Assembly (NCBI RefSeq): GCF_036507355.1
Contig: NZ_AP027877.1
DNA length: 64,000 bases
Reading direction: 5' to 3' (one strand)
Origin: Escherichia coli
GTDB taxonomy: Bacteria; Pseudomonadota; Gammaproteobacteria; Enterobacterales; Enterobacteriaceae
Shown: positions 25,644-52,022 of the stretch, piece after piece
Layout: every line of letters starts with the position of its first letter
Position numbering within the stretch: the first letter of the stretch is position 1
Notes under the pieces: model-generated
What the model was told of the DNA's origin: nothing
Seen by the model: only the letters and a program-made list of their open reading frames with translations
Databases searched by the model: none
Position numbers and translations under genes: made by a program

Positions 25644-25730
25644 GCCCGGATGGTGGAATCGGTAGACACAAGGGATTTAAAATCCCTCGGCGTTCGCGCT
25701 GTGCGGGTTCAAGTCCCGCTCCGGGTACCA
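25644..25730 (+). tRNA. leuZ: tRNA-Leu (anticodon UAA), integration target of the island
   Basis: GCCCGGATGGTGGAATCGGTAGACACAAGGGATTTAAAATCCCTCGGCG...CCGGGTACCA, long variable arm. Confidence 0.95.
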
Positions 25731-25805
25731 TGGGAAACATCAGAATAATCAAAGCAATAAGCAGTGTCGTGAAACCACCTTCGGGTGGTTTTTTTGTGCA
25801 TGCAA
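25675..25805 (+). repeat. Left direct repeat (attL): 3' half of tRNA-Leu plus downstream terminator
   Basis: About 131 bp repeated with a few mismatches and a 2-bp indel at 51890-52022. Confidence 0.85.
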
Positions 25806-29795: not shown

Positions 29796-30096
29796 CCCGT
29801 TATGAACAGGAAGAAAGCGGGCGGCTTTGTAATCTACTGCATGTGGCGTGCATCACAGCATGGAGATGATGTCTCTTTTTCCTGGCTGTTCGCATAAACA
29901 AGTGCAGACACGGGGGATCTCAGATCCCTCGTGATTTTTGCCCCCTATGGTGCATTCTCCAGTAGCAGGGTGATAACGGTTAATCCATTACCCCAACGAC
30001 AGTATTACACCGGTAATAAATGTTCATGAATACAGTTAGTTATGTGGGTTTTGAGGTGGGCTATGTCATCGTTGACGATAACTGAAGGTTTTACAG

Positions 30097-30324
30097 ATGT
30101 ATAAAACTCGCGGTGAAAGGATCGCAGAAAGGCTGTGCTGGATATTACTTCAACTGTATACCGGTAATACGGTATCGGTTAATGATATATGTCAGCGTTT
30201 CGCGGTCAGTCGCCGAACCGGACAGCGTGATTTGTTGAGAGTTGAAACTGTAACGGAAACTATTTCACCTGGAAGGGTAAGGCTGGCAAATTTGATAAGG
30301 GAACGAGTTAGACGAAATTTTTAA
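30097..30324 (+). CDS. Short HTH protein, possibly a remnant of a DeoR/WYL-type regulator
   Basis: VSVNDICQRFAVSRRTGQRDL resembles the N-terminal HTH of WYL/DeoR regulators; only 75 aa. Confidence 0.35.
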   Translation: MYKTRGERIAERLCWILLQLYTGNTVSVNDICQRFAVSRRTGQRDLLRVETVTETISPGRVRLANLIRERVRRNF

Positions 30325-30546
30325 TCGAATCCATATCAATTCTATAAAATATGAAAATTAACGGGAGTAAATATACACTCCCGTTATAATGCAACCTTTT
30401 TTTAACTACTCAAATGATATTAATTTAGGTGCGACAGTGTTTTTATGACATGTTAAATTCGCAAGATCAATAATATCATGAAACAATTTTAGGTAATGCT
30501 GCCAACTTACTGATTTAGTGTATGATGGTGATTTTAAGGTGCTTGC

Positions 30547-30822
30547 GTGGCTTCCATTTCCATCAGATGTCCTTCCTGCTACGCTACTGAAGGCGTGGTG
30601 CGTAACGGCAAAAGCACTGCCGGACATCAGCGCTATCTCTGCTCTCATTACCGTAAAACATGGCAACTACAGTTCACTTACACCGCCTCTCAGCCCGGTA
30701 CGCACCAGAAAATCATTGATATGGCCATGAATGGCGTCGGATGTCGCGCCAGTGCACGCATTATGGGCGTTGGCCTCAACACGGTTTTACGTCACTTAAA
30801 AAACTCAGGCCGCAGTCGGTAA
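30547..30822 (+). CDS. insA: IS1 InsA
   Basis: [40 protein letters not shown]... Confidence 0.92.
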
Positions 30823-30848
30823 CCTAGCGCATACAACCGGGCGGTGAT

Positions 30849-31244
30849 GTGATTGTCTGCGCTGAAATGGACGAACAGCGGGGTTACGTCGGCGCTAAAT
30901 CACGCCAGCGCTGGTTGTTTTACGCGTATGACAGGATTCGGAGGACGGTTGTGGCGCACGTATTCGGTGAACGCACTCTGGCCACACTGGAGCGTCTTCT
31001 GAGCCTGCTGTCGGCCTTTGAGGTCGTGGTATGGATGACGGATGGCTGGCCGCTGTATGAATCCCGCCTGAAGGGAAAGCTGCACGTTATCAGCAAGCGT
31101 TACACTCAGCGCATTGAGCGACATAATCTGAATCTGAGACAACATCTGGCAAGGCTGGGACGGAAGTCACTGTCGTTCTCAAAATCGGTGGAGCTGCATG
31201 ACAAGGTCATCGGGCATTATCTGAACATAAAACACTATCAGTAA
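30849..31244 (+). CDS. insB: IS1 InsB (transposase part; InsAB' made by frameshift)
   Basis: ...[47 protein letters not shown]... Confidence 0.9.
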
Positions 31245-31435
31245 GTTGGAGTCATTACCTGTTTTTGCTGCATATTTGGCCATGCACTTTTGCCATCAAG
31301 TCAGAGAGACAGGGGCACCGTAAGAGACGAAGGTTGCTGCCTGTGATGAGAGGTTATCAGCAATTACAATGGTCACTAATATTTACATAATGTCGGAGAA
31401 CATCATTTTAGTTGAAATAATATAAAGGCGGTTCT

Positions 31436-31762
31436 ATGTATTTACATATCAGAAAGTATCAACTCGTAAATGCGAGATGGCGTGATATCATTGATTTGAC
31501 GGATTATGAAGAAACAATCAAGCAGGTTGTGAGTACATTATTTGGAAATGATTTTATTGAGGTCAGAGTTGAAACGCGTTGTTTTATTCTGACAGTAAAC
31601 AGTACAAGCAGTAAAATACCACACGGCATACTGGTGAATATGGGGAAAAGGCTGGCGGCGAATCTCCAGAGTATCACCTGTCATGCCATGCGGATCTATC
31701 ATGTAAATGGCCATCCTGACGCGCGGCAGTTATTTCACTGTTTTGATGCCGATTGCCTGTGA
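31436..31762 (+). CDS. Hypothetical protein (108 aa)
   Basis: ORF between IS1 and the convergent polymerase gene; no family recognised. Confidence 0.4.
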   Translation: MYLHIRKYQLVNARWRDIIDLTDYEETIKQVVSTLFGNDFIEVRVETRCFILTVNSTSSKIPHGILVNMGKRLAANLQSITCHAMRIYHVNGHPDARQLFHCFDADCL

Positions 31763-31810
31763 TTAAGCCCCCAACTTCTGTTAAAGGAGTTGGGGGAGAT
31801 TTAACGGTTA

Positions 31811-34474
31811 TCAGACTGGAAGACAGAATGTCGGATATTTACGGGCTATGATATCCATCAGTGACTTCATTCGCGGTGTTACAGAACTAAATTTCATTTG
31901 GGGTATTTTTGCTCTTACCGCATTTTTTACATCAGTCACCGTTACTGAATAGCCTTCTGACGTCAGCCATTCAGCAACCTCTTTACAGGAATAACTTTTT
32001 TTATCTTTCAGCATCAGCCCCCATTGGCACTGAGTCAGCGCCCGGAGAAATAGTCTGACTAAAATATCATCACTACGTTTGCTTCCGACTTTTAGTTTCA
32101 TATCAGAAAACACCGTCCGGCAATAGAGAAAATCACACCAGTCATCCCAGTCAGCCAGGGTCTTCAGTGTATGCGTTTGCCGCCAGTCGTCGAAAAGGGA
32201 GCGTTGCTGCAGAGCCTCTTCCATATTATCCCACGGGCGGGAAAACATCAGTAGATGCCCTTCATTCATGGCGGGCCGTACGGGCTGGCGTTTGAAATCG
32301 AATTCCAGATTAAGACGGATATCCTGTTCCCGGGATACCAGATCGCTTTCCGAGAGCCACATCTCACGCGTTGATATCAACGTACTTCGGGATAACGTCT
32401 GACCGGGTAAACGATTAAGGTAAAGATCTACCATATAGTCGTTATAGTCACTGCGTGGAATATCGGCAGGAGGTTTGACGCCAGCCCTGGCATGAACAAC
32501 AGGTTTTCCCTGAATCGCTTTATAGGTTAACTGCCCCCGGGTTTTCATGGCGATAAGCTGGCTGACCTCATGCTTACATGTCAACATTGATGAACCCGGA
32601 TCAACAATATCGCACAGCGACTGGAAGCGGGAAGACAGTGGACCGCTCATGTTTATCTTGTCAAGTGGGCAATTTGTCAAAAAACCATCGGTTGTGACGC
32701 TGACAACCGATGAATCAGAAGGCAAAGCATTCATGAGTTCCCCGACAACGGCGCGGATAAATCCCGTCACATGCGCAGCAAAGAATGGCTGAGTAACCGA
32801 TGATGGTGGGAGGGATCTGTTTAATCCACGGGCAGTATCAAAGGCGGTTTTGGCGCGAAGGCCCTGAGCAAGTTTGCCATAAAGCGAGTTGCCAATTTCT
32901 TTCCAGAATTTCTCCTCCAAAGAACCCTTAATATGGCGATTACGGTTCTCACGGACCTGTTGAACAAAGGGAAGAAACACCGATGTTGATTCGCTGTTAT
33001 GTGGGGAGGTGTCACAGATCCAGGGGACGATGATCCCATTATGGATCGTCATCTCTGCCCCGAGCGACAGAGCAAGTTCGATTTCAGGTGCCGTTGCCCA
33101 TGATTCGCCACTTAATGGAAAGAATAACCCATATTGATCGGTCCGAACCGGCAGGCTGGGATAGGGAACTGATTCCGGGAACCGAAATGTGACAAGCGCA
33201 AATCCCATCACATGCCCACAGTAATCGTCCGGATTTTTACTGAGGCGGATGTTTCCGTAATCGGGTATGAGGATATCTAATAGCCCGGTGGTATACGCTC
33301 CAGCCAGATCGTAGTCATACCAGTGATCAGACGGTGTAACCCCCATCATAAAACACTCATTGCGTCCGCCGTGGTAACAGTTGATCGGGAACGTTTCAAA
33401 CAACTCTCTTGAAGGAACACTGGCGGGGTTTTTAATCGTCCGGAATGCCTGTTTCTCCGTGAGCCAGAGTTCACGGGTTTTAATGTGTGTCCCAAGGCAG
33501 ACTTCAGGAGACATATTGTTTTCTTTAAGTGTTTTGGTGAACCGTGAAACTGCCATCGCCCCGATGGTGGCGGGGACACGATCAATCATCAGCTCCCGGG
33601 CGCAAAAATTGCGAACCTGTAAAGCATAACGAACCGCAATCTCGGCATCCCGCAGAGCATAGGCTTCAAACCCTGCTCTGTCGCCCAGAAGATATTCACG
33701 CATATTGGTTATGGAATAAGGTGCAGGAATGGTGAGTTTGGGAAGACCCAGTAATTCACCACATTCAGCCAGACCCATACCCCCGGGAGTGATAAGCAGT
33801 GTATCGATGAAAGCTACGTTACTGCAACGCGGAGGGGAAGTTCGTTTGTCAAACATTATCTGTTCAGTCTTTACGCGACGTTCCTGCTGTTCATCAAAAT
33901 CGATACCGTAACGATTTTTGAAGCTGCTGACAGTACCGCGTATTCCTTTCAGAAGAATTTTGTAGTCTGACCAGAAATTGGCAAAGGAGGCGATATCCGC
34001 ACGAATGAAATGCGCATATATATTAATAATACCGGGCCATTTTGTAATCACACCCGTTTCAAGAAGCGGTGTAATCGTTTGACAGAGAAATTCCTTAAAA
34101 GACAGTCGGGATTTTTTCTGTGAGTCAGGTGGATAGATAATGTTCGATATACCAGTGTTATCGGGTAAGACGACATAACTCTGATATGACAGAATATCAT
34201 TCTGTTGTGTTTCAGGATTGAAAACATATTCGGTATCAAAACCGATATGGAGTGTCAGGTCACTTGAAATAACAGATACTTTTTTTGATGCAGGTGGTAT
34301 CACAGGATAATCATCAAGCGTTTTAGGTCTTTTAAGATTGAGCGCTGGCTCTGAAGTCACGGACTGATACCCCGAGGCGGCAGCGAGGATATCCTGCAAA
34401 TTATGGCTCATAGTTAACTCCGAAAAAATGCCGGGAGCTGTGTCCCGGCATAAAGAATCAAGATTTAATAACAT
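31811..34474 (-). CDS. Family-B DNA polymerase of the primer-independent PolB (piPolB) type
   Basis: Exo I FDTEY, motif B KEIGNSLYG (KxxxNSxYG), motif C-like VTTDG, and KTRG in AMKTRGQLTY in place of the KxY motif; 887 aa. Confidence 0.85.
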   Translation of the reverse strand: MLLNLDSLCRDTAPGIFSELTMSHNLQDILAAASGYQSVTSEPALNLKRPKTLDDYPVIPPASKKVSVISSDLTLHIGFDTEYVFNPETQQNDILSYQSYVVLPDNTGISNIIYPPDSQKKSRLSFKEFLCQTITPLLETGVITKWPGIINIYAHFIRADIASFANFWSDYKILLKGIRGTVSSFKNRYGIDFDEQQERRVKTEQIMFDKRTSPPRCSNVAFIDTLLITPGGMGLAECGELLGLPKLTIPAPYSITNMREYLLGDRAGFEAYALRDAEIAVRYALQVRNFCARELMIDRVPATIGAMAVSRFTKTLKENNMSPEVCLGTHIKTRELWLTEKQAFRTIKNPASVPSRELFETFPINCYHGGRNECFMMGVTPSDHWYDYDLAGAYTTGLLDILIPDYGNIRLSKNPDDYCGHVMGFALVTFRFPESVPYPSLPVRTDQYGLFFPLSGESWATAPEIELALSLGAEMTIHNGIIVPWICDTSPHNSESTSVFLPFVQQVRENRNRHIKGSLEEKFWKEIGNSLYGKLAQGLRAKTAFDTARGLNRSLPPSSVTQPFFAAHVTGFIRAVVGELMNALPSDSSVVSVTTDGFLTNCPLDKINMSGPLSSRFQSLCDIVDPGSSMLTCKHEVSQLIAMKTRGQLTYKAIQGKPVVHARAGVKPPADIPRSDYNDYMVDLYLNRLPGQTLSRSTLISTREMWLSESDLVSREQDIRLNLEFDFKRQPVRPAMNEGHLLMFSRPWDNMEEALQQRSLFDDWRQTHTLKTLADWDDWCDFLYCRTVFSDMKLKVGSKRSDDILVRLFLRALTQCQWGLMLKDKKSYSCKEVAEWLTSEGYSVTVTDVKNAVRAKIPQMKFSSVTPRMKSLMDIIARKYPTFCLPV

Positions 34475-35096
34475 TTACTACAGATTTGAAAATATCGGTT
34501 TTGCGTGATTCATCATCTACATGGATAAAGGAAACGAGTTTCCTGCCTGCTTTAATCAGGATACCGCGTTGCGTCTTTTCCACAGACGGGGTAACGTGTG
34601 CAGATAACAGACAATGTTCATGTAAATGAAGAAACTTTTTTGAGGCGTAGCCGCCATGTAATCGGGCTTGAATGTCAAGATACATATCATCAAGAGAACC
34701 GGGTTCTCCTGATTCACTCAATACCGGATAACCCTTCTTATCAAAGAGGTTAAGGATAGATTTACTATCATGTTCGAACAGGGTAACACCGTAAATGTAT
34801 TTCATTCGAAAGGTGAGGGAATCGGTGGTGTAGACCTCCTCCTGACGATTGAAATTTTTGAGACGCCTGGCTAATTCATTAAAAACAGCACGAGCAGTAG
34901 CCGTGTCCTGCAGGGTGTAGGTATAAAGTACGAAGCCATCTGTGCCGATGAGCTTTACTAAGTTGTCCATAATCGTGATAGCGAGAACTAATGCAAAGGA
35001 TAGATATTTTTCATCGTTGTCTACAGCTGTGTTTGCTGCTTCAGGAAGAATGTTCAGTGCATTATTAGCATTATTTGCTGTGTTCTTAGTAACCAT
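34458..35096 (-). CDS. Hypothetical protein (212 aa) co-transcribed upstream of the polymerase
   Basis: Overlaps the polymerase start by 17 nt and the AlpA-like gene stop by 11 nt. Confidence 0.55.
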   Translation of the reverse strand: MVTKNTANNANNALNILPEAANTAVDNDEKYLSFALVLAITIMDNLVKLIGTDGFVLYTYTLQDTATARAVFNELARRLKNFNRQEEVYTTDSLTFRMKYIYGVTLFEHDSKSILNLFDKKGYPVLSESGEPGSLDDMYLDIQARLHGGYASKKFLHLHEHCLLSAHVTPSVEKTQRGILIKAGRKLVSFIHVDDESRKTDIFKSVVNVIKS

Positions 35097-35286
35097 TTAT
35101 ATCACCTTTAAGTTTGTTTTGACGATGTGCATTTTCCCACTCAACAATATCATCAAGAGAGAATCGTATAGCCCGCCCAATTCTGATGAAGGGCGGGAGT
35201 TTTCCGGGGTTGCGCGATATATCTGACGCAACCGTGGATGCAGAAAGATTAAATCTTTCTGCGAACTGCTTAATGGTTAAATACAT
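35086..35286 (-). CDS. AlpA-family phage-type regulator / excisionase-like HTH protein
   Basis: 66 aa, MYLTIKQFAERFNLSASTVASDISRNPGKLPPFIRIGRAIRFSLDDIVEW, typical AlpA/Xis HTH_17. Confidence 0.75.
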   Translation of the reverse strand: MYLTIKQFAERFNLSASTVASDISRNPGKLPPFIRIGRAIRFSLDDIVEWENAHRQNKLKGDINGY

Positions 35287-35436
35287 AAACCTCCGGTTTC
35301 AGAGAATAAGAAGCCACGCGGATTTAATATCAATCCACATTCTGTGATGACTTAATGCAGGGCCCTGCAGAAGCATGCAATGACAATACCGTCCTTAAAC
35401 GAGTGTTGCATCAATCACGAATCACAGATCATAGGT

Positions 35437-36564
35437 TCATTTTGTGTCATAACTTTCTATGACCTGAGAAACCACTGCGTGTGATGTCGCTGCATTGTGA
35501 AAAGCGTAGCGACGGGTCGCCGTGAGTGAATGGTGATTTAGCAGATGGGAAGCGATTGCAATATCCCCGGTCGCCTGTAGTACCCGGGTGGCAAAGGTAC
35601 GGCGCAGGTCATGCATCCGCAGGTTATCAATGTTGGCATCCCGACAAATACGGGCAAAGGTTGCACGCGGATATGCCAGAGGGCGGGCATTGTCGGTTAG
35701 TTGTGGAAAAATGTAAGTTTTGCTGAGCATCAGGTCCTGCTGGCACTGGACAACTGCAATGGCTGGAAGTGCAAGTGGGCAGGTGAAAGGGTGTCCGGAC
35801 TTTGTATCAGGCAGTATGAGTTGATGCATATCCGGGTGCCAGTACTCCCATTTCAGGGTACATACCTCACCAATACGCATCCCCGTATAAAGAGCAAGCA
35901 ATATAGAATCAGCTGCCGGTGTTTGCAGCGCTGTTGCTGCGTTAATAAAGCGCGGGATTTCTGTCGCTGACAGTGTGCGATAGCGAATGTTATTTTCTTT
36001 CAGATAGCGGACATGTGACATCGGGGAATGTGTGATCCATCCAGCACGTACTGCCAGAGAGCATATTTTGGACAATATTGCGAGGATACGGTTTACTGTT
36101 GACGGACGTAATTTTTCCCGTAAGCCAGCAGCATATTGTTCTAGTTCTCCTGCCGTGATGTCGCGAAGTTGCCGCTTGCCCCAGAACGGGCGAACGTAGA
36201 GGTTGAGTTTTGACAACTCTGACTGAGGACTCTTTTTATACAACTGCAAATCCGGTAGCCACAGGTCATTGATGGCCTGTTCCACAGTGAATCGACGGGA
36301 CTGAACAGCAAGGCGATTTTTATCGGCAAGCAGGTTCATCACATGCTGACGGGCATCCTCAATGCAGAGATGAGGGAATTCACCCAGTGTTTCATATATA
36401 CGTTGATTTTTGATGGTGGCGCGAAAGGCCAGCGTGATCCGTTTTGGATATACCAGTGCACGCAGGTTTTGGCACTGAATATCACGGTATTCCTGACAAC
36501 CCGTGAGGGGATGTGGAAGTTGGTGAATTGATTTGTTGCTGAAACGCAGATCCAGAATAGGCAT
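35437..36564 (-). CDS. Second tyrosine recombinase / integrase
   Basis: Catalytic HDLRRTFATRV (HxxR) and TRRYAF (Tyr), plus core-binding-like N-terminal region. Confidence 0.85.
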   Translation of the reverse strand: MPILDLRFSNKSIHQLPHPLTGCQEYRDIQCQNLRALVYPKRITLAFRATIKNQRIYETLGEFPHLCIEDARQHVMNLLADKNRLAVQSRRFTVEQAINDLWLPDLQLYKKSPQSELSKLNLYVRPFWGKRQLRDITAGELEQYAAGLREKLRPSTVNRILAILSKICSLAVRAGWITHSPMSHVRYLKENNIRYRTLSATEIPRFINAATALQTPAADSILLALYTGMRIGEVCTLKWEYWHPDMHQLILPDTKSGHPFTCPLALPAIAVVQCQQDLMLSKTYIFPQLTDNARPLAYPRATFARICRDANIDNLRMHDLRRTFATRVLQATGDIAIASHLLNHHSLTATRRYAFHNAATSHAVVSQVIESYDTK

Positions 36565-36706
36565 CGTATTTCTCCTGTAAATGACACTGGAAAAATACGA
36601 TGTGAGGTTATAGTCTGCCAGTTACAGCTTTCACAGTTCATCAGGTGAAAAATGCTGATTCGGATATAATGGCAACACAATTCCATGTCGCCATTATATT
36701 AAGAAA

Positions 36707-37837
36707 CTACAGTTTCATGATCTTGTTCGCTATTTTTTCGAAGTAAACCTCATTCTTAAGAAGAGTGATATTGTTAGTTTGAACACCCAGACCACTGGAG
36801 GTTGACTGGAAGTTGAGTGAACCACTTATCACGGTGGACTTTCCTGATAAAAATGAAATCAACTCCTTGGAAGATGGTGCCCACTCAGGGTTTAAGAGTA
36901 ATGCAATGTAGATATATGTCTTACGAAGCAATTGTTCGATATCTTTTTTATACCCCGTAGTGTTTTGCTTACCTTTAATGCAAATTGATTTGATTATGAA
37001 CTCATCAGGGCTGGTTAAAGGCGTTTTAAACTTATTCAGTGATCCATCGTTATGAATGACTTCATAAGGCAGCATAGATAAAATGATCAATGCAATCATT
37101 TTAGGATGATAAAGGTAGTTATCACGAATGATTTTTCCTGCCTTCATTGTATTGAGTGTTGTTTGAATAAATACAAAAAGATATTCAGAGCAAAAGTAAC
37201 AAAACACAAGCCAGGATAGGTCAATGGCTGGAATGTTAATATCCTTAGGTAGTTTGTTTAGCCAGTATTCAGACTTCAAAAAGGTCCTGATTTCAACAGT
37301 ATATTCATGCATTTTTGCGCTGAAATCAAGCATTGCTACTTGACCTGATTGTTCCGTAACTGTGTGGTCTATAAATGTTAGTGTATTGCACATTTTATCC
37401 AGCGTGTTTTGAAAACAAGAAAGGAGTTCGGCATTATTATTACCATTAACCGCAGATGAAAGTTCAGTTGCAATAAATGCATCCAGTAGCATACAGATTT
37501 TTTTCGGAATGACATTTTTACGGGATTGCTGTGAATAGAAATATACTGCCAGTAAATTAAAGGCAGTGCACTCCTTTTTTAACCATTGTTCGAGCACTGG
37601 GACGTGCTGAAAAAAATTGATATGCTTAGCAGTAGATGCTGATGGAGATAGTACATGAAGAATATCTACAGCAGGCTTCATTTGCAATATTTGATCGGAT
37701 TCGGTAGTCGTCATTAGTTCCAGTAATTGCTGTTCAGAAAATAGTTTAGACAGGTGATCAATGTCTTTTTGGTATTGGTTAAGTTTTTTTAAATTCCCCG
37801 GTACACGGGTTACATTGTTTTTCATTTTCTCGAACAT
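36707..37837 (-). CDS. Hypothetical protein (376 aa), AT-rich orphan
   Basis: Long ORF in visibly AT-rich DNA; no motif recognised. Confidence 0.55.
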   Translation of the reverse strand: MFEKMKNNVTRVPGNLKKLNQYQKDIDHLSKLFSEQQLLELMTTTESDQILQMKPAVDILHVLSPSASTAKHINFFQHVPVLEQWLKKECTAFNLLAVYFYSQQSRKNVIPKKICMLLDAFIATELSSAVNGNNNAELLSCFQNTLDKMCNTLTFIDHTVTEQSGQVAMLDFSAKMHEYTVEIRTFLKSEYWLNKLPKDINIPAIDLSWLVFCYFCSEYLFVFIQTTLNTMKAGKIIRDNYLYHPKMIALIILSMLPYEVIHNDGSLNKFKTPLTSPDEFIIKSICIKGKQNTTGYKKDIEQLLRKTYIYIALLLNPEWAPSSKELISFLSGKSTVISGSLNFQSTSSGLGVQTNNITLLKNEVYFEKIANKIMKL

Positions 37838-38239
37838 AATTTTATCCTCGTTTGAATTAATACACTGATTTAAAAAGTAGCATGTCGTGTTAGCGAGGTA
37901 ATCCTAAAACGTGAATGGGATCAGGGGCAAGCTTGAATCTGCGTAAGGATATGGCTTAAATTTAATGGTGTAATTAGTGGATTAGAGGCTTATAGCTATT
38001 TAAATACAATAAGTTATGACGGTGTGTGGCGGGTGTAAATCGGTTAGTTTTTATGGTTAAAATATGAGCGCTATGAGGTTTCAGAGATGGTGGTGTTTAA
38101 ATTACATAAAACCAAGGCCTGATAATCAGTATCAATACCGGAACGATGTCATATGATTAACACTGTCTATGGCATTGATAATGATCTATGCAAGGCTGAA
38201 ATTAGCTCTGCTTCACGATGATATAGTGTTCTATAAAGA

Positions 38240-39475
38240 TTAAAAGGAAATAAACAGAGCCTTTCGCCGATGAATCAATGTGCTGATTTCCCTCAAATCA
38301 GCCTCAATACTACCAACATCACCAAAGACTTCACCTCTAATCTCACTTCGATTTTTCATGAAATTGGTGCTTAATAAGCTTTCTTTTTTTAATGCCATTA
38401 ATTTTGGTTTTATATCGTTATAGAAATGCTTACGGCTTACCCTGATGCTATGAATCGAGTAGTAAACTGTTTTATACATCAAAAATATAAGTAACTGGCC
38501 GAGAAGATATTCTTTTTCAATGTATTTATATTGAGAGGATTTTTCGCGTTTCGCCAGGTAGAAAACATGAGGTGCGATGATGGTGGGGATAAAATCCAGT
38601 GCTGGAGAGGTTTTGGTTTTTTCTGTTTCTCTTCCGGATTGAAGATGTTGAAGTACAGAGTATACAATGCTTAAAATTATGGCGTTACTTATATTATTAA
38701 TTGCAGTTGGGTAAATATGCAGATTGCTTATCAATTCTGAAAGGCAAAGTAAAACACCAGTGATGTTGGGTTTTCTGCCGGAGATTGTGGTGCTGTTGAA
38801 AATGTGACGATTCTTACGACTTATATTGACAAGTTTATGAGTGCAGAACTCTATATGTTCGACGATTTTATCTTGACTATTTTTAATGTATTTTGAAATG
38901 TTAGTGATCCGGCCATTCAACGTTAGTTCATCAAGCAATATATCATTTTTAATATTGCGAATTTCATCGCAATGTTCACATTGAGAAACTATCTCATGTA
39001 ATACATAACTCGAAGTATTGCGTGACGATGCTGATATGTAATCTAAAATGGAATGCTCGACTTTGATTTTTTGTTTGTATTTTTTAATGCACTGTTTGAT
39101 TGTTTTTTGTAGAGTATTTGAGATGTGTTTTTTATATTCTTTTAGAAAATCTTGCTCTAAAAAGAGTGAGGAGAAGATCAACTGCTGGCGAGATAATTTA
39201 ATCTCAGGCTTGATCAATTTAATCCGAAAAACTCTTCCCTCCAACTCATAGCTGAACATGGAAGATAAGTCATAGTGGGGTGATAAATGTTCGAGTAACG
39301 ACATTCGTGTATTCATTAGCCGCTTGAATTTATGGTCAGCATACATAAGTGTTTTTTTTATTTGCTCATCATAAAGTGGGCCGATAGCGCAGTTGGCAAT
39401 ACTCATTCTATCCGGAGACCTCCAGTCAGCAGGGGAATCACATTGACGGTCATCATTACTATCAAAGGGCATCAA
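38240..39475 (-). CDS. Hypothetical protein (411 aa), AT-rich orphan
   Basis: Long ORF in visibly AT-rich DNA; no motif recognised. Confidence 0.55.
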   Translation of the reverse strand: MMPFDSNDDRQCDSPADWRSPDRMSIANCAIGPLYDEQIKKTLMYADHKFKRLMNTRMSLLEHLSPHYDLSSMFSYELEGRVFRIKLIKPEIKLSRQQLIFSSLFLEQDFLKEYKKHISNTLQKTIKQCIKKYKQKIKVEHSILDYISASSRNTSSYVLHEIVSQCEHCDEIRNIKNDILLDELTLNGRITNISKYIKNSQDKIVEHIEFCTHKLVNISRKNRHIFNSTTISGRKPNITGVLLCLSELISNLHIYPTAINNISNAIILSIVYSVLQHLQSGRETEKTKTSPALDFIPTIIAPHVFYLAKREKSSQYKYIEKEYLLGQLLIFLMYKTVYYSIHSIRVSRKHFYNDIKPKLMALKKESLLSTNFMKNRSEIRGEVFGDVGSIEADLREISTLIHRRKALFISF

Positions 39476-39778
39476 CGTTGCCGATTATGGATGATGTCAG
39501 CTTCACACACCAGTACGGGTGATATATGGATCATCATTACCCCAACGGCAGTTTTACACCATGGCTAATATGGATGCTATCTTACTAAGATAATTGGTTT
39601 TTAGCGAGTGACGAGCCAGGTTGTGTCAGTCTGTCTCATGTCGATATTACGGGGATGATGCAAACCTGAATGCTGCGATATTGGCGTGTCAGGGGAGGCA
39701 TCTTACGGTATCATTTACCGCAATTTTTAAGATGCAAAGCCCTGCATCGCTAGCTTTTTCTTCAGACCAGGATGATTC

Positions 39779-41302
39779 ATGAACGACAAAATCAGTCAGG
39801 ACACGATCAACAAAGCCCTGTGGGCCGCGTGTGATACGTTCCGTGGCACCATCAGTGCTGATACCTATAAAGACTTTATCCTTACCATGCTGTTCCTCAA
39901 GTACATTTCAGATGTCTGGCAGGATCACTACGACGAATATAAAGTGCAATATGGCGATGCGCCGGAACTGATTGAAGCGATGATGGCGAACGAGCGCTTC
40001 GTGTTGCCGAAAAGCGCCAGTTTCTATGCGTTGTACGAGCGACGTCATGAGCCGGGCAACGGTGAGCGTATCGATCAGGCGCTGCATGCGATTGAAGAAG
40101 CCAACGGCACCAAACTGAAAGATGCCGGGAAAAGTGTCTTCCAGGATATTTCGTTTAACACTGACCGTCTGGGCGAAGAAAAACAGAAGAACACCATCCT
40201 GCGTCAGTTGCTGGAAGACTTTGCCGGTGAAGATCTTAACCTGAAGCCAAGCCGTGTCGGTACGCTGGACGTTATCGGTAATGCTTACGAATATCTGATC
40301 AAAAACTTTGCTGCCAGCGGTGGGCAGAAAGCCGGGGAATTCTATACCCCGCCGGAAGTTTCGGACCTGATTGCTGAACTGCTCGATCCGCAACCGGGTG
40401 ATACCATCTGCGATCCGGCCTGTGGTTCGGGTTCATTGTTGATGAAGTGTGGGCGTAAAATTGTCTCCGGGCATGATAGTCGTAACTATGCATTGTTCGG
40501 TCAGGAAGCGATCGGTTCTACGTGGTCGCTGGCGAAAATGAATATGTTCCTGCACGGGGAAGACAACCATAAAATCGAGTGGGGCGATACCATTCGTAAC
40601 CCGAAGCTGCTCGATAAAAATGGCGACCTGATGCTGTTTGATATCGTGACCGCTAACCCACCGTTCAGCCTCGATAAGTGGGGCCATGACGAGGCCGAGA
40701 ACGATAAGTTTGGCCGTTTTCGTCGCGGTGTACCGCCGAAGACTAAAGGAGATTACGCTTTTATCTCGCATATGATCGAAACCCTGAAACCGGGAACTGG
40801 CCGTATGGGCGTAGTTGTGCCACACGGTGTGCTTTTCCGTGGCTCCAGCGAAGGTAAAATTCGCCAGAAACTGATCGACGAAAATTTGCTGGATGCGGTA
40901 ATTGGTCTGCCGGAAAAACTGTTCTACGGTACGGGGATTCCGGCTGCGATTCTGATTTTTAAAAAGCAGAAAGTTGATGACAAGGTGCTGTTTATCGATG
41001 CCAGCCGTGAATTCAAGGCAGGTAAAAACCAGAACCAGCTTAGCGAAGAAAACATTAAGAAAATCGTCAAGACCTACCGTGATGGCGATAACGTCGAGAA
41101 ATACGCCTATCTTGCCAGCCTGAAGGAAATTCAGGACAACGACTATAATCTCAATATCCCGCGCTATGTCGATACCTTTGAAGAAGAGGATGAGATTGAC
41201 CTGCTGGCGGTGCGAGCAGAACGCGAGCAACTGAAGGCGGAATTGGCGAAGCTGGAAACGGAGATGGCTGGATATTTGAAGGAGTTGGGTTATGGCTCGT
41301 GA
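39779..41302 (+). CDS. hsdM: Type I restriction-modification methyltransferase subunit HsdM
   Basis: N6-adenine MTase motifs (DPACGSGS, TANPPFS), 507 aa. Confidence 0.92.
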   Translation: MNDKISQDTINKALWAACDTFRGTISADTYKDFILTMLFLKYISDVWQDHYDEYKVQYGDAPELIEAMMANERFVLPKSASFYALYERRHEPGNGERIDQALHAIEEANGTKLKDAGKSVFQDISFNTDRLGEEKQKNTILRQLLEDFAGEDLNLKPSRVGTLDVIGNAYEYLIKNFAASGGQKAGEFYTPPEVSDLIAELLDPQPGDTICDPACGSGSLLMKCGRKIVSGHDSRNYALFGQEAIGSTWSLAKMNMFLHGEDNHKIEWGDTIRNPKLLDKNGDLMLFDIVTANPPFSLDKWGHDEAENDKFGRFRRGVPPKTKGDYAFISHMIETLKPGTGRMGVVVPHGVLFRGSSEGKIRQKLIDENLLDAVIGLPEKLFYGTGIPAAILIFKKQKVDDKVLFIDASREFKAGKNQNQLSEENIKKIVKTYRDGDNVEKYAYLASLKEIQDNDYNLNIPRYVDTFEEEDEIDLLAVRAEREQLKAELAKLETEMAGYLKELGYGS

Positions 41303-42566
41303 TTCGCTTTACCCAGTGAGCGTTAAAGCTGGAAAACCGATCCTTGGAATGCTACCTACAGGATGGCAAAAGTTATCATTAGAAAAGTGCTTAAATATAG
41401 AGGCAAGAAAGGCATATATACAAGATAATCAAGAGTATGACTTAGTTACAGTAAAGCGCTCCAGAGGTGGCGTAATAAGACGTGAGCATCTTAAAGGAAA
41501 AGATATCTCCGTAAAAAGTCAATTCTATATTAAAGAAGGCGACTTTCTCATATCAAAACGACAAATTGTGCACGGTGCTTGCGGTCTTGTACCTAAAGAA
41601 CTTTCTGGCTCAATTGTATCGAATGAATATTGTGTGCTTACAGGGAAGTCCGGTTTTTATCTTCCTTATATGGAATTTCTATCGGAGTCTCTATATTTCC
41701 AGCAAACCTGCTTCCACTCTAGCATTGGTGTGCACATAGAGAAAATGATTTTTAAGTTAGATAGTTGGTTTAAGTGGCCATTTAATATCCCCCCACTGTC
41801 TGAACAAAAGAGAATCGTTAAAATCCTGTCAACCTGGGATAAGGCGATTTCGGTGACGGAAAAGCTTCTCACCAACAGTCAGCAGCAGAAAAAAGCCCTG
41901 ATGCAGCAATTGCTTACCGGGAAAAAACGCTTGCTGGATGAGAGGGGGGTGAGGTTTAGTGGGGAGTGGAAGAGAGTAAAACTGGGTGCGATAGCCGATA
42001 TGAACAGTGGAGGTACTCCGAAATCAACGGTTGAAGAGTATTATGGCGGGAATATCCCATGGGTATCTATTTCTGATATGACATCTAATGGAAAGTGGAT
42101 TGCTACAACTGAAAAATATCTGACTGAATTAGGATTGAACAGTTCATCCGCAAGAATATATCCAAAAAACTCGGTTCTTTATGCTATGTATGCTTCTATA
42201 GGTGAATGCAGCATTGCTGCTGTAAATTTAACATCTTCGCAGGCAATCTTGGGTATTAGACCAAAAGATTGTTTAAATTATGAGTTTTTATATTTCTATC
42301 TTACATCATTAAAAGAAAAAATAAAACTGCAAGGCCAGCAAGGTACACAGTCCAACCTAAACGCCGGAATGGTTAAAGAGTTTGAACTAGACTTACCCAG
42401 TATAAGAGAACAACAAAAAATCGCCGCCGTCCTGTCCGTCGCCGATGCCGAAATCTCCACGCTGGAGAAAAAACTCGCCTGCCTGAGAGATGAGAAAAAA
42501 GCCCTGATGCAACAGCTACTGACTGGCAAACGTCGTGTTAAGGTCGATGAGGCGGTTGCCGAATGA
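41292..42566 (+). CDS. hsdS: Type I R-M specificity subunit HsdS
   Basis: Two target-recognition domains separated by repeated conserved helices (KKALMQQLLTGKKRL / KKALMQQLLTGKRRV); overlaps hsdM. Confidence 0.9.
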   Translation: MARDSLYPVSVKAGKPILGMLPTGWQKLSLEKCLNIEARKAYIQDNQEYDLVTVKRSRGGVIRREHLKGKDISVKSQFYIKEGDFLISKRQIVHGACGLVPKELSGSIVSNEYCVLTGKSGFYLPYMEFLSESLYFQQTCFHSSIGVHIEKMIFKLDSWFKWPFNIPPLSEQKRIVKILSTWDKAISVTEKLLTNSQQQKKALMQQLLTGKKRLLDERGVRFSGEWKRVKLGAIADMNSGGTPKSTVEEYYGGNIPWVSISDMTSNGKWIATTEKYLTELGLNSSSARIYPKNSVLYAMYASIGECSIAAVNLTSSQAILGIRPKDCLNYEFLYFYLTSLKEKIKLQGQQGTQSNLNAGMVKEFELDLPSIREQQKIAAVLSVADAEISTLEKKLACLRDEKKALMQQLLTGKRRVKVDEAVAE

Positions 42567-43246
42567 AACTGACGAAAAGCGGTCCACTGACTGACCGGGA
42601 AATCGACTGGCTGGAAGAAATATTAATGAAGTATGGAATGGATGATTCTGTACTCTGTTTCTCTGAGCTGGATGGATTGCTGACGGCGATTTTATCAGGT
42701 CCAAATATGGTTTCACCCAATATCTGGCTGAGTGCTATTTGGGGAGGAGGCGATTATCATCCGAAATGGTCATCTGAGAGAGAGATGGAGCGTTTTGTCA
42801 GTCTGTGTTTTCAGCATATGAACGATATCGCTGGTTGCCTTTATGACGCCCCTGAACTGTTTGAGCCGATTTTCAATGAGCGTGAGGTAAAGGGGGAAAA
42901 ATATACCATTGTGGAAGAGTGGTGTTTTGGTTATATGAAAGGAAAGTCACTGGATGACTGGTCTGGTCTTCCCGGTGAGTTACGGCCTTCTCTGGAAGTG
43001 ATCGCTCTTCATGGCGTGGAGAAGAATTTTCCTGTACTTGAGAAAATGACCAGAGAGCAGTTTGAGAAAAGTATTTCCCTTATTAAGCCTGCTGCACTGG
43101 CACTTTATCAGTACTGGTTGTCAGTGAGAATGTCAGAGGCATCATCCCGGCCTGTTCCAGTGAAGGGGGCAGAAAACATGCCCGGGCGAAATGACCCGTG
43201 TCCGTGTGGCAGCGGTAAAAAATTTAAGAAGTGCTGTCTGCATTGA
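42563..43246 (+). CDS. YecA-like UPF0149 protein with C-terminal SEC-C metal-binding motif, nested in the hsd operon
   Basis: Aligns along its length with chromosomal YecA at 52141-52806; ends [20 protein letters not shown]; ATGA overlap with the hsdS stop. Confidence 0.8.
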   Translation: MKLTKSGPLTDREIDWLEEILMKYGMDDSVLCFSELDGLLTAILSGPNMVSPNIWLSAIWGGGDYHPKWSSEREMERFVSLCFQHMNDIAGCLYDAPELFEPIFNEREVKGEKYTIVEEWCFGYMKGKSLDDWSGLPGELRPSLEVIALHGVEKNFPVLEKMTREQFEKSISLIKPAALALYQYWLSVRMSEASSRPVPVKGAENMPGRNDPCPCGSGKKFKKCCLH

Positions 43247-43295
43247 TGAATCTTCATGTGACCAGTAGCGAGTAGCGCCAGAAAGAAAAGGATTA

Positions 43296-46200
43296 ATGAT
43301 GAACCAGACGTACACGCCTAAATTCCAGGAAGAATACAGCGCCAAAATTCCGGCACTGACGTTACTGACCAGCCTCGGCTGGACGTTTTTATCTCCGAAA
43401 CAGATTATGGATTACCGGGGCTATAAACAGGATGAGGTGGTGCTGCGTCCGGTTCTGCGTGAAGAGCTGTCGAAGCGTTCCTTTATGGCGGGTGGCAAAA
43501 CCTGCCAGTTATCGGAAAAAGCACTGGATAACCTGATATCACAGGTCTGTTCTCCGGCGCTGAATGAAGGGCTGCTCAAAGCCAATGAACGGATGTATAA
43601 CCATCTGCTCTACGGTATCGCCGTCACGGAGTTTGTCGATGGCAAGAAGGTGAACCCCACCATTGCGCTGATCGACTGGGAACATCCGGAAAGTAACCAG
43701 TTCCATTTTACCGAAGAATTTACGGTATTGCGGTCAGGCGGTGTCGAAACCCGCAGGCCGGATATTGTGTGTTTTGTGAATGGTATCCCGCTGGCCGTCA
43801 TTGAAGCGAAAAGCCCGGCGGGTCACGGCAAGAAAGGGCCAACCATTGACGAAGGGATATCCCAGAGTATCCGCAATCAGCTCAACGACGAAATCCCGCA
43901 GCTGTTTGCTTACAGCCAGATATTACTGTCGATTAACGGGCATGACGGGCGCTACGGTACCTGTCATACACCAATGAAATTCTGGGCGGCATGGCGCGAA
44001 GAAGATATTACTTACGCGCAGATGTATGCGCTGCGCAACCATAAGTTATCGACTGAACAAATTCATGCGTTGTTTGATGATCGTCCTTCAGTCGATCTCA
44101 AATGGTATCAACAGTTAATCGATGGGGGGGAACTGGCAGTCAGCGGGCAGGATAAGCTGCTCATCAGTCTGCTTTCACCGGAACGTCTGCTGGAGATGAC
44201 CCGCTTCTTCACCCTGTTTGATAAAAAAACCGGAAAAATTGTTGCCCGCTATCAGCAGGTGTTCGGTATTAAAAGACTGCTGGAACGCATCAGTACCCGC
44301 AGACCAGACGGGGGCAGGGAAGGTGGGGTGATCTGGCATACCACGGGGTCAGGTAAATCTTACACCATGGTATTCCTCAGCAAGGCGCTGATTCTTCATG
44401 ACAGCCTGAAGCAGTGTCGTATTGTGGTGGTGACGGACCGCGTGGACCTTGAAGGGCAGCTCAGCGGCACTTTTGTCTCTGGTGGCGAACTGGCAGGGAA
44501 GGATGATAAGGCCAAAGCGATGGCAACCTCAGGTCAGAAGCTGGCACAGCAGATTGGCTCTGGTAAAGAACGTATAATCTTTACCCTTATCCAGAAATTT
44601 AACTCAGCGACAAAATTGCCTGAATGCGTCAACACCAGCCCCGACATCATCGTTCTGATTGATGAAGGACACCGTAGCCAGGGTGGTGAGAACCATGTGC
44701 GAATGAAACTGGCACTGCCGAACGCCGCCTTTGTGGCATTTACTGGTACGCCATTGCTAAAAGAAGATAAGACCACCAATAAATTCGGGCCGATTGTCCA
44801 CGCTTATACCATGCAGCGAGCGGTAGAAGATAAAGCCGTTACACCTTTGCTGTATGAAGAACGTATTCCCGACCTTGAGGTTAACGATCGGGCAATAGAT
44901 GCCTGGTTTGATCGTATTACCGATGGGTTAAGCGAAGCGCAAAAAGCCGACCTTAAGCGTAAATATGCCCGTAAAGGTGAGGTTTATAGTGCAGATGATC
45001 GCATCCGTCTGATCGCACTCGATATCGCCACGCACTTCTCGAAGAATATTGATGAGGGGCTGAAAGGCCAGCTTGCCTGCGACAGCAAGATTTCCGCCAT
45101 CAAATATAAAAAGTATCTTGATGAAGCCGGGTTGTTTGAGTCAGCAGTAGTTATCAGCCCGCCGGATACCCGGGAAGGGAATACCGAAGTGGATGAAAGC
45201 AAACTGCCGGAAGTGACGAAATGGTGGAAGGATAATGTCGGCACGCAGGATGAGTCTGTGTATACCCGTAATATCATCAGTCGTTTCGATACCGATGAGA
45301 AGCTCAAATTGCTGATAGTCGTTGATAAACTGCTCACCGGGTTTGATGAGCCGAAGAATACCGTGCTGTATATCGACAAGCCGCTTAAGTCCCACAACCT
45401 TATCCAGGCGATTGCGCGGGTGAACCGACTGCATCCACTAAAAAAGTTCGGTCTGCTGATTGATTATCGCGGTATTCTGGCTGAGCTGGACACGACTATC
45501 GGCAAATATCAGGACCTCGCCTCCCGAACTCAGGGCGGATACGATATCAAAGATATTGACGGGCTGTACAGCGCCATGAGCTCTGAATACAAGCGCCTGC
45601 CGCATCTGTATAACCAGCTGTGGGCCATATTTGCCGGTGTTAAAAACAAAAATGATACTGAGCAGTTACGTGCGGTACTGGTGCCTAAAATGGAAGAACG
45701 TGACGGAGAGATGGTCGATATCCATCAGAAAACCCGTGATGATTTCTTCGAGGCGTTAACGGCCTTTGCCGGATGCCTGAAAGTGGCACTGCAGTCCGCT
45801 ACCTTCTTCACCGACAAGAGCTTTACGGAACAAGACCGAAATCTCTATAAAGAAACCGTAAAACAGATGTCCAGCCTGCGCCAGTGGGCGATGCAGGTAA
45901 GTGGAGAGCAGGTCAATTATGACGACTACGCTGAGCAGGTGAAAAAACTGCTGGATAAGCATGTCACCGGCGTTGAGGTTCGTGAACCGGATGGCGTGTA
46001 TGAAGTCGGTAAAATGGGCAAGAGCGAAAAGCCCGAAGAGTGGGACAACAATAAAACCCGCAATGAAACCGACATCATTAAAACCCGCGTGACGAAGATG
46101 ATTGAGCAGGAATTGCGTGATGACCCGTATGCTCAGGAGGCATTTTCAAAACTCCTGCGTATGGCTATCGAAGAGGCTGAAAAACTGTTTGACCATCCGC

Positions 46201-51889: not shown

Positions 51890-52022
51890 ATTTAAAATCC
51901 CTCGGCGTTCGCGCTGTGCGGGTTCAAGTCCCGCTCCGGGTACCATGGGAAAGATAAGAATAAAATCAAAGCAATAAGCAGTGTCGTGAAACCACCTTCG
52001 GGTGGTTTTTTTGTGCCTGCAA
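51890..52022 (+). repeat. Right direct repeat (attR): copy of tRNA-Leu 3' half plus terminator
   Basis: Matches 25675-25805 with a few mismatches and a 2-bp indel; begins inside the anticodon arm, so no complete tRNA here. Confidence 0.85.

Follow-up and report, generated by a model that had tools for sequence, protein, structure and literature searches.

Two large, AT-rich genes with no recognisable relatives lie between the internal integrase and the restriction genes of an Escherichia coli genomic island, which raises the question of whether they belong to the exchangeable cargo of the island or to the element itself. We studied them in a stretch of 64,000 nucleotides of contig NZ_AP027877.1 (assembly GCF_036507355.1), hereafter the window. 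It contains a pipolin inserted at tRNA-Leu in the glyW-cysT-leuZ tRNA cluster, a 26-kb element bounded by 131-bp direct repeats; several E. coli chromosomes match the region at 100% identity. The E. coli pipolins are described as elements with a primer-independent family B DNA polymerase (piPolB) at Leu-tRNA genes and as bimodular defence islands (PMC11551731, PMC7385651), and the element in the window follows this published architecture. Its first part comprises an IntSXT-type integrase, three small genes including DUF2787, a small helix-turn-helix (HTH) gene, and an IS1. Then come the family B DNA polymerase, a 212-aa orphan (h212), an AlpA/excisionase-like HTH protein (Xis), and an IntP2-type tyrosine recombinase. 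The two genes in question, which we call ORF-A and ORF-B (open reading frames A and B), follow, and beyond them lie hsdM-hsdS-YecA-like-hsdR and further restriction/defence genes (Table 1). Our analysis indicates that ORF-A and ORF-B very probably belong to the backbone of the element, as vertically inherited genes of its internal recombinase/replication module, and are not exchangeable cargo.

A preliminary description of this DNA had reported two large, strikingly AT-rich ORFs on the minus strand between the integrase/polymerase block and hsdM. Both ORFs are intact, and they and their location are as it described them. RefSeq labels the two products as hypothetical proteins. ORF-A starts with an ATG that has a GAGGA Shine-Dalgarno sequence 8 nt upstream. 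Read mechanically, ORF-B spans 38240-39475 on the minus strand from a TTG start and encodes 411 aa, and the RefSeq call reaches 39472. We place its start at 39406, most likely giving a protein of 388 aa, because all the more distant homologues begin at Met24 of the window protein (MSI...) and because every substitution counted by eye in the 23-codon extension, in an alignment of E. coli, Citrobacter, and Edwardsiella, changes the amino acid. The GC content is 0.360 in ORF-A, 0.346 in ORF-B, and 0.358 in the spacer between them, versus 0.495 in IntP2, 0.47 in piPolB, 0.50 in hsdM, and 0.472 in the whole window. The proteins had been called Lys/Asn/Ile-rich. This holds for Lys and Ile, but Leu is the commonest residue of ORF-A and prominent in both, and Asn is only moderate (ORF-A: L 12.5, K 9.3, I 8.2, S 8.0, N 6.9%; ORF-B: I 11.9, L 11.3, S 10.3, K 9.8, N 5.2%). 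The combined fraction of F, Y, M, I, N, and K residues (FYMINK) is 0.37-0.38 in both, versus 0.24-0.30 in their neighbours.

The low GC content is not peculiar to the window. ORF-A has a GC content of 0.35-0.39 (0.35-0.42 at third codon positions, GC3) in every clade, beside IntP2 and piPolB at 0.47-0.51, and the pipolin copies of ORF-B have 0.34-0.35. The GC3 of the two genes is 0.34-0.42 in every lineage, versus 0.46-0.52 for IntP2 and piPolB. Since ORF-A is AT-rich in all clades even though its synonymous sites are saturated between them, its low GC content is a maintained property of the gene. One could then suppose that the DNA matters more than the proteins, i.e., that the 2.7-kb AT-rich tract serves for H-NS nucleation or silencing, or insulates the core from the cargo. 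The persistence of the low GC in all lineages, synonymous sites included, beside genes at 0.47-0.51, and the equally AT-rich spacer would fit this idea. Yet full-length homologues of ORF-A and ORF-B reach down to 37-45% identity, and the pairwise ratios of non-synonymous to synonymous substitution rates (dN/dS) are well below 1: 0.15-0.36 for ORF-A and 0.10-0.17 for ORF-B, compared with 0.07-0.32 (mostly <0.2) for IntP2 and 0.10-0.26 for piPolB. Both proteins also keep long invariant motifs, including HHPKM..LI.LSMLPYEV and GK.N.TGYKK..QLLRKTYIYIALLL in ORF-A and ISGR.PNITG and QYKYIEKEYLLGQLL.FLMYK in ORF-B. The retention of length, the low dN/dS, and the invariant motifs show that selection acts on protein function, and we regard an explanation at the DNA level as very improbable.

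The same evidence bears on whether the ORFs could be spurious or in decay, as pseudogenes or as leftovers of phage structural genes. Judged by full-length conservation at 37-45% identity and by their dN/dS, ORF-A and ORF-B are real genes under purifying selection and not chance ORFs. Some copies are broken: both genes are frameshifted in the decayed pipolins of E. coli G8 and of a matching metagenome contig, and ORF-B is frameshifted in Citrobacter koseri. But coverage of the gene reaches at least 80% in 233 of the 250 complete E. coli genomes with ORF-A and in 248 of the 265 with ORF-B. The preliminary description had considered that the ORFs might be disrupted in closely related copies or prove to be degraded phage structural genes. 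The first applies to only a few decayed pipolins, most copies being intact, and the second has no counterpart in phage sequences or folds: there was no PHROGs family for ORF-A and only one of unknown function for ORF-B (E 0.048, not significant), no match of either protein to phage genomes by tblastn, and nothing better than E 0.68, which is not a match, when the ORF-A model was searched in BFVD with Foldseek. Decay or phage origin is thus effectively excluded.

The claim that the proteins contain no recognisable motif withstood wider searches. No significant match of ORF-A or ORF-B was found in Pfam, with single sequences and with every family member, in NCBIfam, or in the PDB by sequence and by profile. 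Against the defence-system profiles of PADLOC-DB v2, neither protein had a family at E<=1. Fold searches with the predicted structure of ORF-A, including AFDB, gave no relative outside its own family. Orphan status was likewise borne out, since both families are tiny, their named members are all from Enterobacterales, and no relatives were detected. A search of 5.8 billion protein clusters returned 18-23 clusters (90% identity) for ORF-A and 13 for ORF-B; the profile search of ORF-A in 5.8 billion proteins recovered only its own family, as did an exhaustive HMMER profile search of ORF-B in 1.84 billion representatives (8 representatives). We found no paper that cites the RefSeq accessions of the two proteins. 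They are also unrelated to each other by BLASTP and hhalign, and we rejected the idea that they are paralogues.

The closest approach to a known family is a weak match of ORF-B (residues 113-227) to AbiJ_NTD4 (PF18863), whose i-E of 0.013 is below significance. It is confined to two near-identical members among the eight of the ORF-B family. AbiJ proteins combine an N-terminal domain with a C-terminal HEPN nuclease domain, whereas ORF-B has only the sub-threshold NTD4 match and no HEPN domain. We rejected the assignment of ORF-B to the AbiJ-type proteins and regard the match as due to chance in a Lys/Ile-rich helical stretch. The AlphaFold2 (AF2) model of ORF-A has helices throughout (predicted local distance difference test, pLDDT, 65). 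Catalytic or defence motifs were not seen in either protein, nor were nuclease, NTPase, TIR, SIR2, or membrane-effector features. By a crude hydropathy test, neither contains a transmembrane segment, with a maximal Kyte-Doolittle value over 19-residue windows of 1.43-1.51, versus 1.55 for the soluble IntP2. On this test, the proteins do not qualify as membrane-disrupting effectors.

The gene neighbourhood carries most of the argument. A profile search of genome contigs with a piPolB alignment gave Enterobacterales only, and the sampled loci are enterobacterial pipolins. ORF-A lies directly 5' of IntP2-Xis-h212-piPolB, in the same direction, in every examined pipolin that covers the region (at least 21 loci, three clades, and about ten genera). 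These loci come from Serratia, Hafnia, Edwardsiella, Citrobacter, Buttiauxella, Intestinirhabdus, Enterobacter, E. coli, and uncultured contigs, and the clades compared are only 59-71% identical in piPolB. The slot of ORF-A is the same whether the cargo is a Type I restriction-modification (RM) system or a methyltransferase with ResIII and UvrD/PD-(D/E)XK. Conserved synteny with piPolB and IntP2 thus spans three clades for ORF-A, and ORF-B shows it in one: among the pipolins examined, ORF-B is confined to the E. coli/Citrobacter/Edwardsiella-type clade, and the protein search also returned a Salmonella homologue. Among complete E. coli genomes, 295 have piPolB, 250 ORF-A, and 265 ORF-B, all on the chromosome. 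No intact copy of either gene was found on plasmids or phages, and all the members whose context was examined lie in pipolin-type islands, if one counts an ORF-B homologue in a piPolB-less relative (locus L018, described below). The only match outside such islands is a remnant of ORF-A (94 aa, corresponding to the first ~97 codons, Hafnia-type) on a Klebsiella plasmid.

This remnant is on the IncFIB plasmid pKqu-1 of Klebsiella quasipneumoniae (L016, 7169-10002), where the Type I RM cargo block of a pipolin is accompanied by the leader with a conserved 24-nt box, described below, and by the ORF-A remnant, cut by an IS1. The locus is direct evidence that cargo has moved out of a pipolin and onto a plasmid, taking part of the junction along.

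Sequence divergence draws the boundary between cargo and core at the same place. Between E. coli and Edwardsiella, nucleotides are 98-100% identical through hsdM and the whole intergenic region between hsdM and ORF-B. At ~39400, i.e., at the start codon of ORF-B, identity falls to 0.5-0.8 over ORF-B, ORF-A, and IntP2. The corresponding protein identities are 99.6% for HsdM, 57% for ORF-B, 69% for ORF-A, 69% for IntP2, and 67% for piPolB. The position of this drop puts ORF-A and ORF-B on the core side of the boundary of recent recombination. In Serratia, replacement of the cargo reaches back to codon 13 of hsdM and spares the leader and ORF-A. The pattern expected of exchangeable cargo was not found, because ORF-A is next to IntP2 throughout, its divergence is core-like, and intact copies on plasmids or phages are lacking. 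It is this fixed synteny with IntP2 across differing cargo, together with the core-like divergence and the lack of intact plasmid or phage copies, that leads us to place the two genes in the backbone.

Several observations concern the exchange of the cargo itself. The HsdM of the window and those of loci L004, L006, and L012-L015 (window region 39779-46583) have 96-100% protein identity across clades in which IntP2 and piPolB have 67-77%. The synonymous divergence (dS) across pipolin clades is 0.1-0.7 for HsdM versus 1.4-1.9 for IntP2, and this near-identity at low dS implies that the RM cargo was exchanged after the core lineages split. In Serratia marcescens (L002, 9530-9694), a 54-aa ORF beside the box matches the start of HsdM over 13 residues (MNDQISQDTINKA) and diverges from there on; after it come UvrD/PD-(D/E)XK, an N6/N4 methyltransferase, and a ResIII helicase. 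This ORF is the scar of an exchange in which the cargo was replaced from just inside hsdM onwards. Within the E. coli-type clade, the window and Citrobacter differ by a dS of 0.14-0.25 in ORF-A and ORF-B versus 0.055-0.075 in IntP2 and piPolB, an excess that hints at separate histories or at recombination among pipolins.

Could the two genes be resident defence or abortive-infection genes, i.e., permanent anti-phage effectors or sensors beside a variable cargo, silenced until required by their AT-rich, H-NS-prone DNA? Pipolins are defence islands whose cargo starts right beside ORF-B. Both genes are orphan, are AT-rich at third codon positions in every lineage, and evolve faster in protein sequence than IntP2 and piPolB. 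That ORF-B is kept ahead of two different recombinase/replicase modules also suggests a function that is not tied to piPolB. This explanation has to contend with the lack of any match to a defence model in PADLOC, Pfam, or NCBIfam, with the restriction of the weak AbiJ_NTD4 match to two near-identical proteins, and with the lack of the effector features listed above. Moreover, the exchange with other mobile elements that marks the adjacent cargo is not seen for these genes, their synteny is fixed, and ORF-A is universal instead of patchy. We consider a resident defence function unlikely, though it is the most serious of the rival explanations. The preliminary description had pointed out that defence or abortive-infection genes usually accumulate in such positions; the lack of matches in defence catalogues and the backbone-type distribution do not support the inference that these two are such cargo.

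The two genes do not require each other. ORF-A occurs without ORF-B in Serratia/Hafnia/Buttiauxella-type pipolins and in locus L019, and ORF-B occurs without ORF-A in L018. The spacer between them varies from 300 to 500 bp across loci and is poorly conserved. We therefore rejected an obligate pair, such as a toxin-antitoxin or a sensor-effector system: each gene occurs alone, the spacer is loose, and the families are unrelated. Locus L018 (Logan contig ERR1891491, 3829-12293) has the most divergent homologue of ORF-B (45% identity), again AT-rich (0.33 vs 0.47). Its backbone resembles that of the pipolin (IntSXT 47%, h123 40%, h176 58%, DUF2787 43%, and h108 42% identical), and it lacks piPolB, ORF-A, and the 24-nt box. 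There, ORF-B immediately precedes another tyrosine recombinase, which has 26% identity to IntP2 and is followed by a DUF927 replicase-type gene; repeats flanking this replicative module were not found. The locus suggests that replication modules are swapped on a common backbone. Because ORF-B precedes another recombinase in it, ORF-A and ORF-B appear as alternative or additive occupants of a slot 5' of the internal recombinase.

The region upstream of this slot is conserved. About 240 bp on the cargo side of ORF-B are homologous (~70%) to the sequence that immediately precedes ORF-A in clades without ORF-B, including Serratia with its other cargo. Within it, a near-invariant 24-nt block (GGTGTAAAACTGCCGTTGGGGTAA) is 96-100% identical in all pipolin clades; it is ~65-90 nt upstream of ORF-A where ORF-B is missing. 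Every clade hence has a conserved box upstream of whichever gene comes first in the block, which we count in favour of the backbone interpretation. A second copy in direct orientation is present in every locus that spans both positions, ~7-11 kb away (9.5 kb in the window), so that the copies bracket the block (B)-A-IntP2-Xis-h212-piPolB-(WYL...), e.g., at 9912-9935 and 18854-18877 in L004. The similarity of the pair runs ~20 nt further on one side, and shuffled sequences gave 0 matches. Copy 2 is ~81-86 nt from the start of h78 across loci. The Hafnia orthologue of h78 has a weak HTH_DeoR match on record, and h78 might be a regulator that binds the box.

Boxes flanking an integrase gene could be attL and attR of a nested IntP2 element. 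We found this unsupported, as no single-box product was seen and a natural microhomology deletion (L017, below) keeps both boxes. Specifically, an "empty site" junction with a single box was found neither in 5,426 E. coli genomes, using a chimeric query, nor in 35 metagenome or viral loci; a lack of such junctions is no proof of inactive sites. Two metagenome contigs (L032 and L038) are IS1 truncations: position 39484 of the window is joined to IS1 (30492-31259), with ORF-B, ORF-A, and the core removed and the box and hsdM kept. The box region was present in 397 E. coli genomes, ~100-150 more than ORF-A (250) or piPolB (295), and IS1 truncations like these, with other arrangements, would account for the surplus. 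A shared operator or promoter element is a simpler idea for the box than att sites. A sigma-70 consensus promoter overlapping the box was not found. On the minus strand of the spacer between ORF-B and ORF-A neither a consensus promoter nor a terminator was predicted, nor was a terminator predicted between ORF-B, ORF-A, and IntP2; positions 36000-40000 contain no Rfam match, iterons, or tandem structure.

The deletion just mentioned is in I4, the one E. coli strain without the block, whose locus (L017, 7009-7701) corresponds to window positions 29796-30128 joined to 39413-39778. The inner block is gone: a deletion at a 6-bp microhomology removed window positions 30129-39412 and ended 7 nt before the ATG of ORF-B. 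It took the 3' part of h78, IS1, piPolB, h212, Xis, IntP2, ORF-A, and ORF-B, and it left IntSXT, DUF2787, and the RM cargo. The I4 island is a natural "piPolB-less pipolin".

What might the two backbone genes do? It is possible, though on balance doubtful, that ORF-A and ORF-B are accessory or regulatory factors of excision and replication. Both proteins would be soluble, non-enzymatic, and helical, and would act through element-specific protein-protein or protein-DNA contacts on excision and replication, for example by setting when IntP2, Xis, and piPolB are active. Their transcription would probably start in the box-containing control region, and their persistent AT-richness would favour the binding of H-NS, probably holding expression low. 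Taken as a whole, backbone placement with an accessory or regulatory role is our favoured explanation, which we hold tentatively and with slightly more doubt than confidence.

Several points weigh against it. Library scans detected no DNA-binding or other domain in ORF-A or ORF-B, which makes the regulatory role a purely positional argument, and the AF2 model of ORF-B is unreliable (pLDDT 39) and unusable. The persistence of the I4 island without the whole inner block, with the frameshifts of both genes in some pipolins, indicates that they are dispensable for the maintenance of the island. Conflict genes, too, are typically AT-rich, orphan, and fast-evolving at the protein level, and between clades ORF-A is 37-43% identical versus 71-77% for piPolB and IntP2. 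The divergence of ORF-A is not fully congruent with that of IntP2 and piPolB: Edwardsiella is closer than Hafnia for ORF-A and farther for IntP2, which points to recombination between pipolins. Finally, the leader of IntP2, which has a separate box and a hairpin, is conserved independently, so that IntP2 may have its own promoter and co-transcription with ORF-A is not required.

In this leader, ~95 nt before the start codon of IntP2 are conserved in all clades, and an invariant GATGAACTGTGAAA box lies ~65 nt before the ATG. The hairpin would mask the Shine-Dalgarno sequence and start codon of IntP2. Its 15 pairs are kept in eight loci, mostly through sequence conservation, and with only one compensatory pair the covariation support is weak; the fold in the window has z = -6.2. 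These features suggest translational or transcriptional control of the internal integrase.

Other readings keep the genes in the backbone and give them an external partner. ORF-A and ORF-B might be factors of helper exploitation or transfer, which sense or hijack a helper phage or a conjugative element and trigger excision and replication for transfer, much as satellite-specific proteins do. Pipolins have no transfer machinery (capsid or conjugation genes) of their own, and genes that are linked to the backbone, adjoin int and xis, and encode fast-evolving, helical, lineage-specific proteins are what one would expect of binders of fast-evolving partners. But the proteins have no similarity to phage or satellite proteins in PHROGs or BFVD, pipolins have no known helper, and the proposal is entirely inferential; we give it a small probability. 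Still somewhat less probable is that ORF-A, with or without ORF-B, is an induction switch that senses phage infection, a helper, or DNA damage and licenses IntP2, Xis, and piPolB, the boxes being its operators or recombination sites of IntP2. If this were true with the boxes as recombination sites, the replicative module would be separable from IntSXT and the cargo, and pipolins would be composite, two-part elements.

Known systems offer partial parallels. Integrase-adjacent defence hotspots have reportedly been described in P4-like satellites and P2-like prophages (Rousset et al. 2022). Their genes also lie between a P2/P4-type integrase and neighbouring DNA, are AT-rich, and are flanked by restriction or defence genes. 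Yet the occupants of these hotspots vary and are shared with other elements, whereas ORF-A is constant and co-diverges with the core, and neither of the two genes matches a defence model. Master repressors or regulators such as Stl of the Staphylococcus aureus pathogenicity islands (SaPI), C of P2, and cI of 186 are encoded beside int in satellites and temperate phages, and in P2/186 a gene upstream of int is co-transcribed with int. Like ORF-A and ORF-B, these regulators are integrase-adjacent, lineage-specific, fast-diverging, and largely helical. They differ in having a recognisable HTH, which is not detectable in ORF-A or ORF-B, and in being mostly smaller. In the pipolin, moreover, the Xis gene is downstream of int and not divergent.

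The nearest precedent is in pipolins themselves. The published accounts (Mateo-Caceres & Redrejo-Rodriguez 2024, PMC11551731; Flament-Simon et al. 2020, PMC7385651, Table S3) report that conserved orphan proteins accompany piPolB, IntSXT, IntP2, DUF2787, and WYL, and that 64-93% of E. coli pipolins carry several groups of hypothetical proteins without hits. These orphan core genes of gammaproteobacterial pipolins are like ORF-A and ORF-B in element type, host, and tRNA-Leu site, and the frequencies given there fit those that we find for ORF-A (250/295) and ORF-B (265/295). In the main text of the two papers, neither gene is described individually. The core is placed there "near the integration site" with the cargo distal, whereas here ORF-A and ORF-B lie at the end of the core away from that site, where the cargo begins. 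The element itself is thus already known, and the genes are in databases as hypothetical proteins. New are their place in the backbone where core meets cargo, their confinement to pipolin-type islands, the slot upstream of the recombinase that they share, and the paired 24-nt box.

Table 1. Coordinates of the main features of the pipolin in the window.
Feature	Position	Strand	Remarks
ORF-A, 376 aa, orphan, all-alpha (predicted)	36707..37837	-	ORF and ribosome-binding site; first gene of co-directional A-IntP2-Xis-h212-piPolB
ORF-B, most likely 388 aa from Met24, orphan, predicted helical	38240..39406	-	ORF, homologue starts
Spacer between ORF-B and ORF-A, 402 bp, GC 0.358	37838..38239	-	Poorly conserved apart from ~75 nt nearest ORF-A
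24-nt box copy 1, GGTGTAAAACTGCCGTTGGGGTAA	39537..39560	-	130 nt upstream of ORF-B ATG
24-nt box copy 2, 2 mismatches, same orientation	29988..30011	-	Between terminator of DUF2787 operon and h78
IntP2-type tyrosine recombinase, internal integrase	35437..36564	-	Naming after PMC11551731
Conserved hairpin over IntP2 Shine-Dalgarno and ATG	36562..36602	-	15 pairs kept in 8 loci
GATGAACTGTGAAA box in IntP2 leader, invariant	36629..36642	-	
AlpA/excisionase-like HTH protein (Xis)	35086..35286	-	
h212, orphan core protein between Xis and piPolB	34458..35096	-	
piPolB, family B DNA polymerase, pipolin hallmark, 866 aa by RefSeq call	31811..34411	-	
h78 homologue, 75-aa DeoR-like HTH protein	30097..30324	+	Starts 85 nt from box copy 2
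hsdM, first gene of variable cargo module, divergent from ORF-B	39779..41302	+	
Proximal pipolin direct repeat	25675..25805	+	Overlaps 3' end of tRNA-Leu(taa), 25644-25730
Distal pipolin direct repeat	51890..52022	+	97-98% identical

Two further features of the island deserve mention. In the region 30097-31762 of the window, IS1 (~30492-31259) replaces a WYL-domain regulator and two small genes (h106 and h130) that trail h78 in other pipolins, which implies that any WYL-dependent control of the element is missing in this strain. In the cargo, a YecA-like gene (UPF0149 with a SEC-C motif; 42563-43246, plus strand) lies within the Type I RM system, between hsdS and hsdR, and RefSeq annotates an M48/SprT-like metallopeptidase after hsdR in a matching genome. 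Both the YecA-like gene and the metallopeptidase recur in the RM cargo of pipolins (also in L004-L006 and L016).

Pipolins are recently defined, widespread, self-replicating defence islands. The placement of ORF-A and ORF-B in the backbone, at the head of the recombinase-polymerase block and behind a near-invariant box, makes the two genes and the box concrete candidates for the control of excision, replication, and transfer. It also calls for caution in the discovery of defence systems by "guilt by association": the largest unexplained ORFs beside a restriction system here behave like housekeeping genes of the element and not like cargo.

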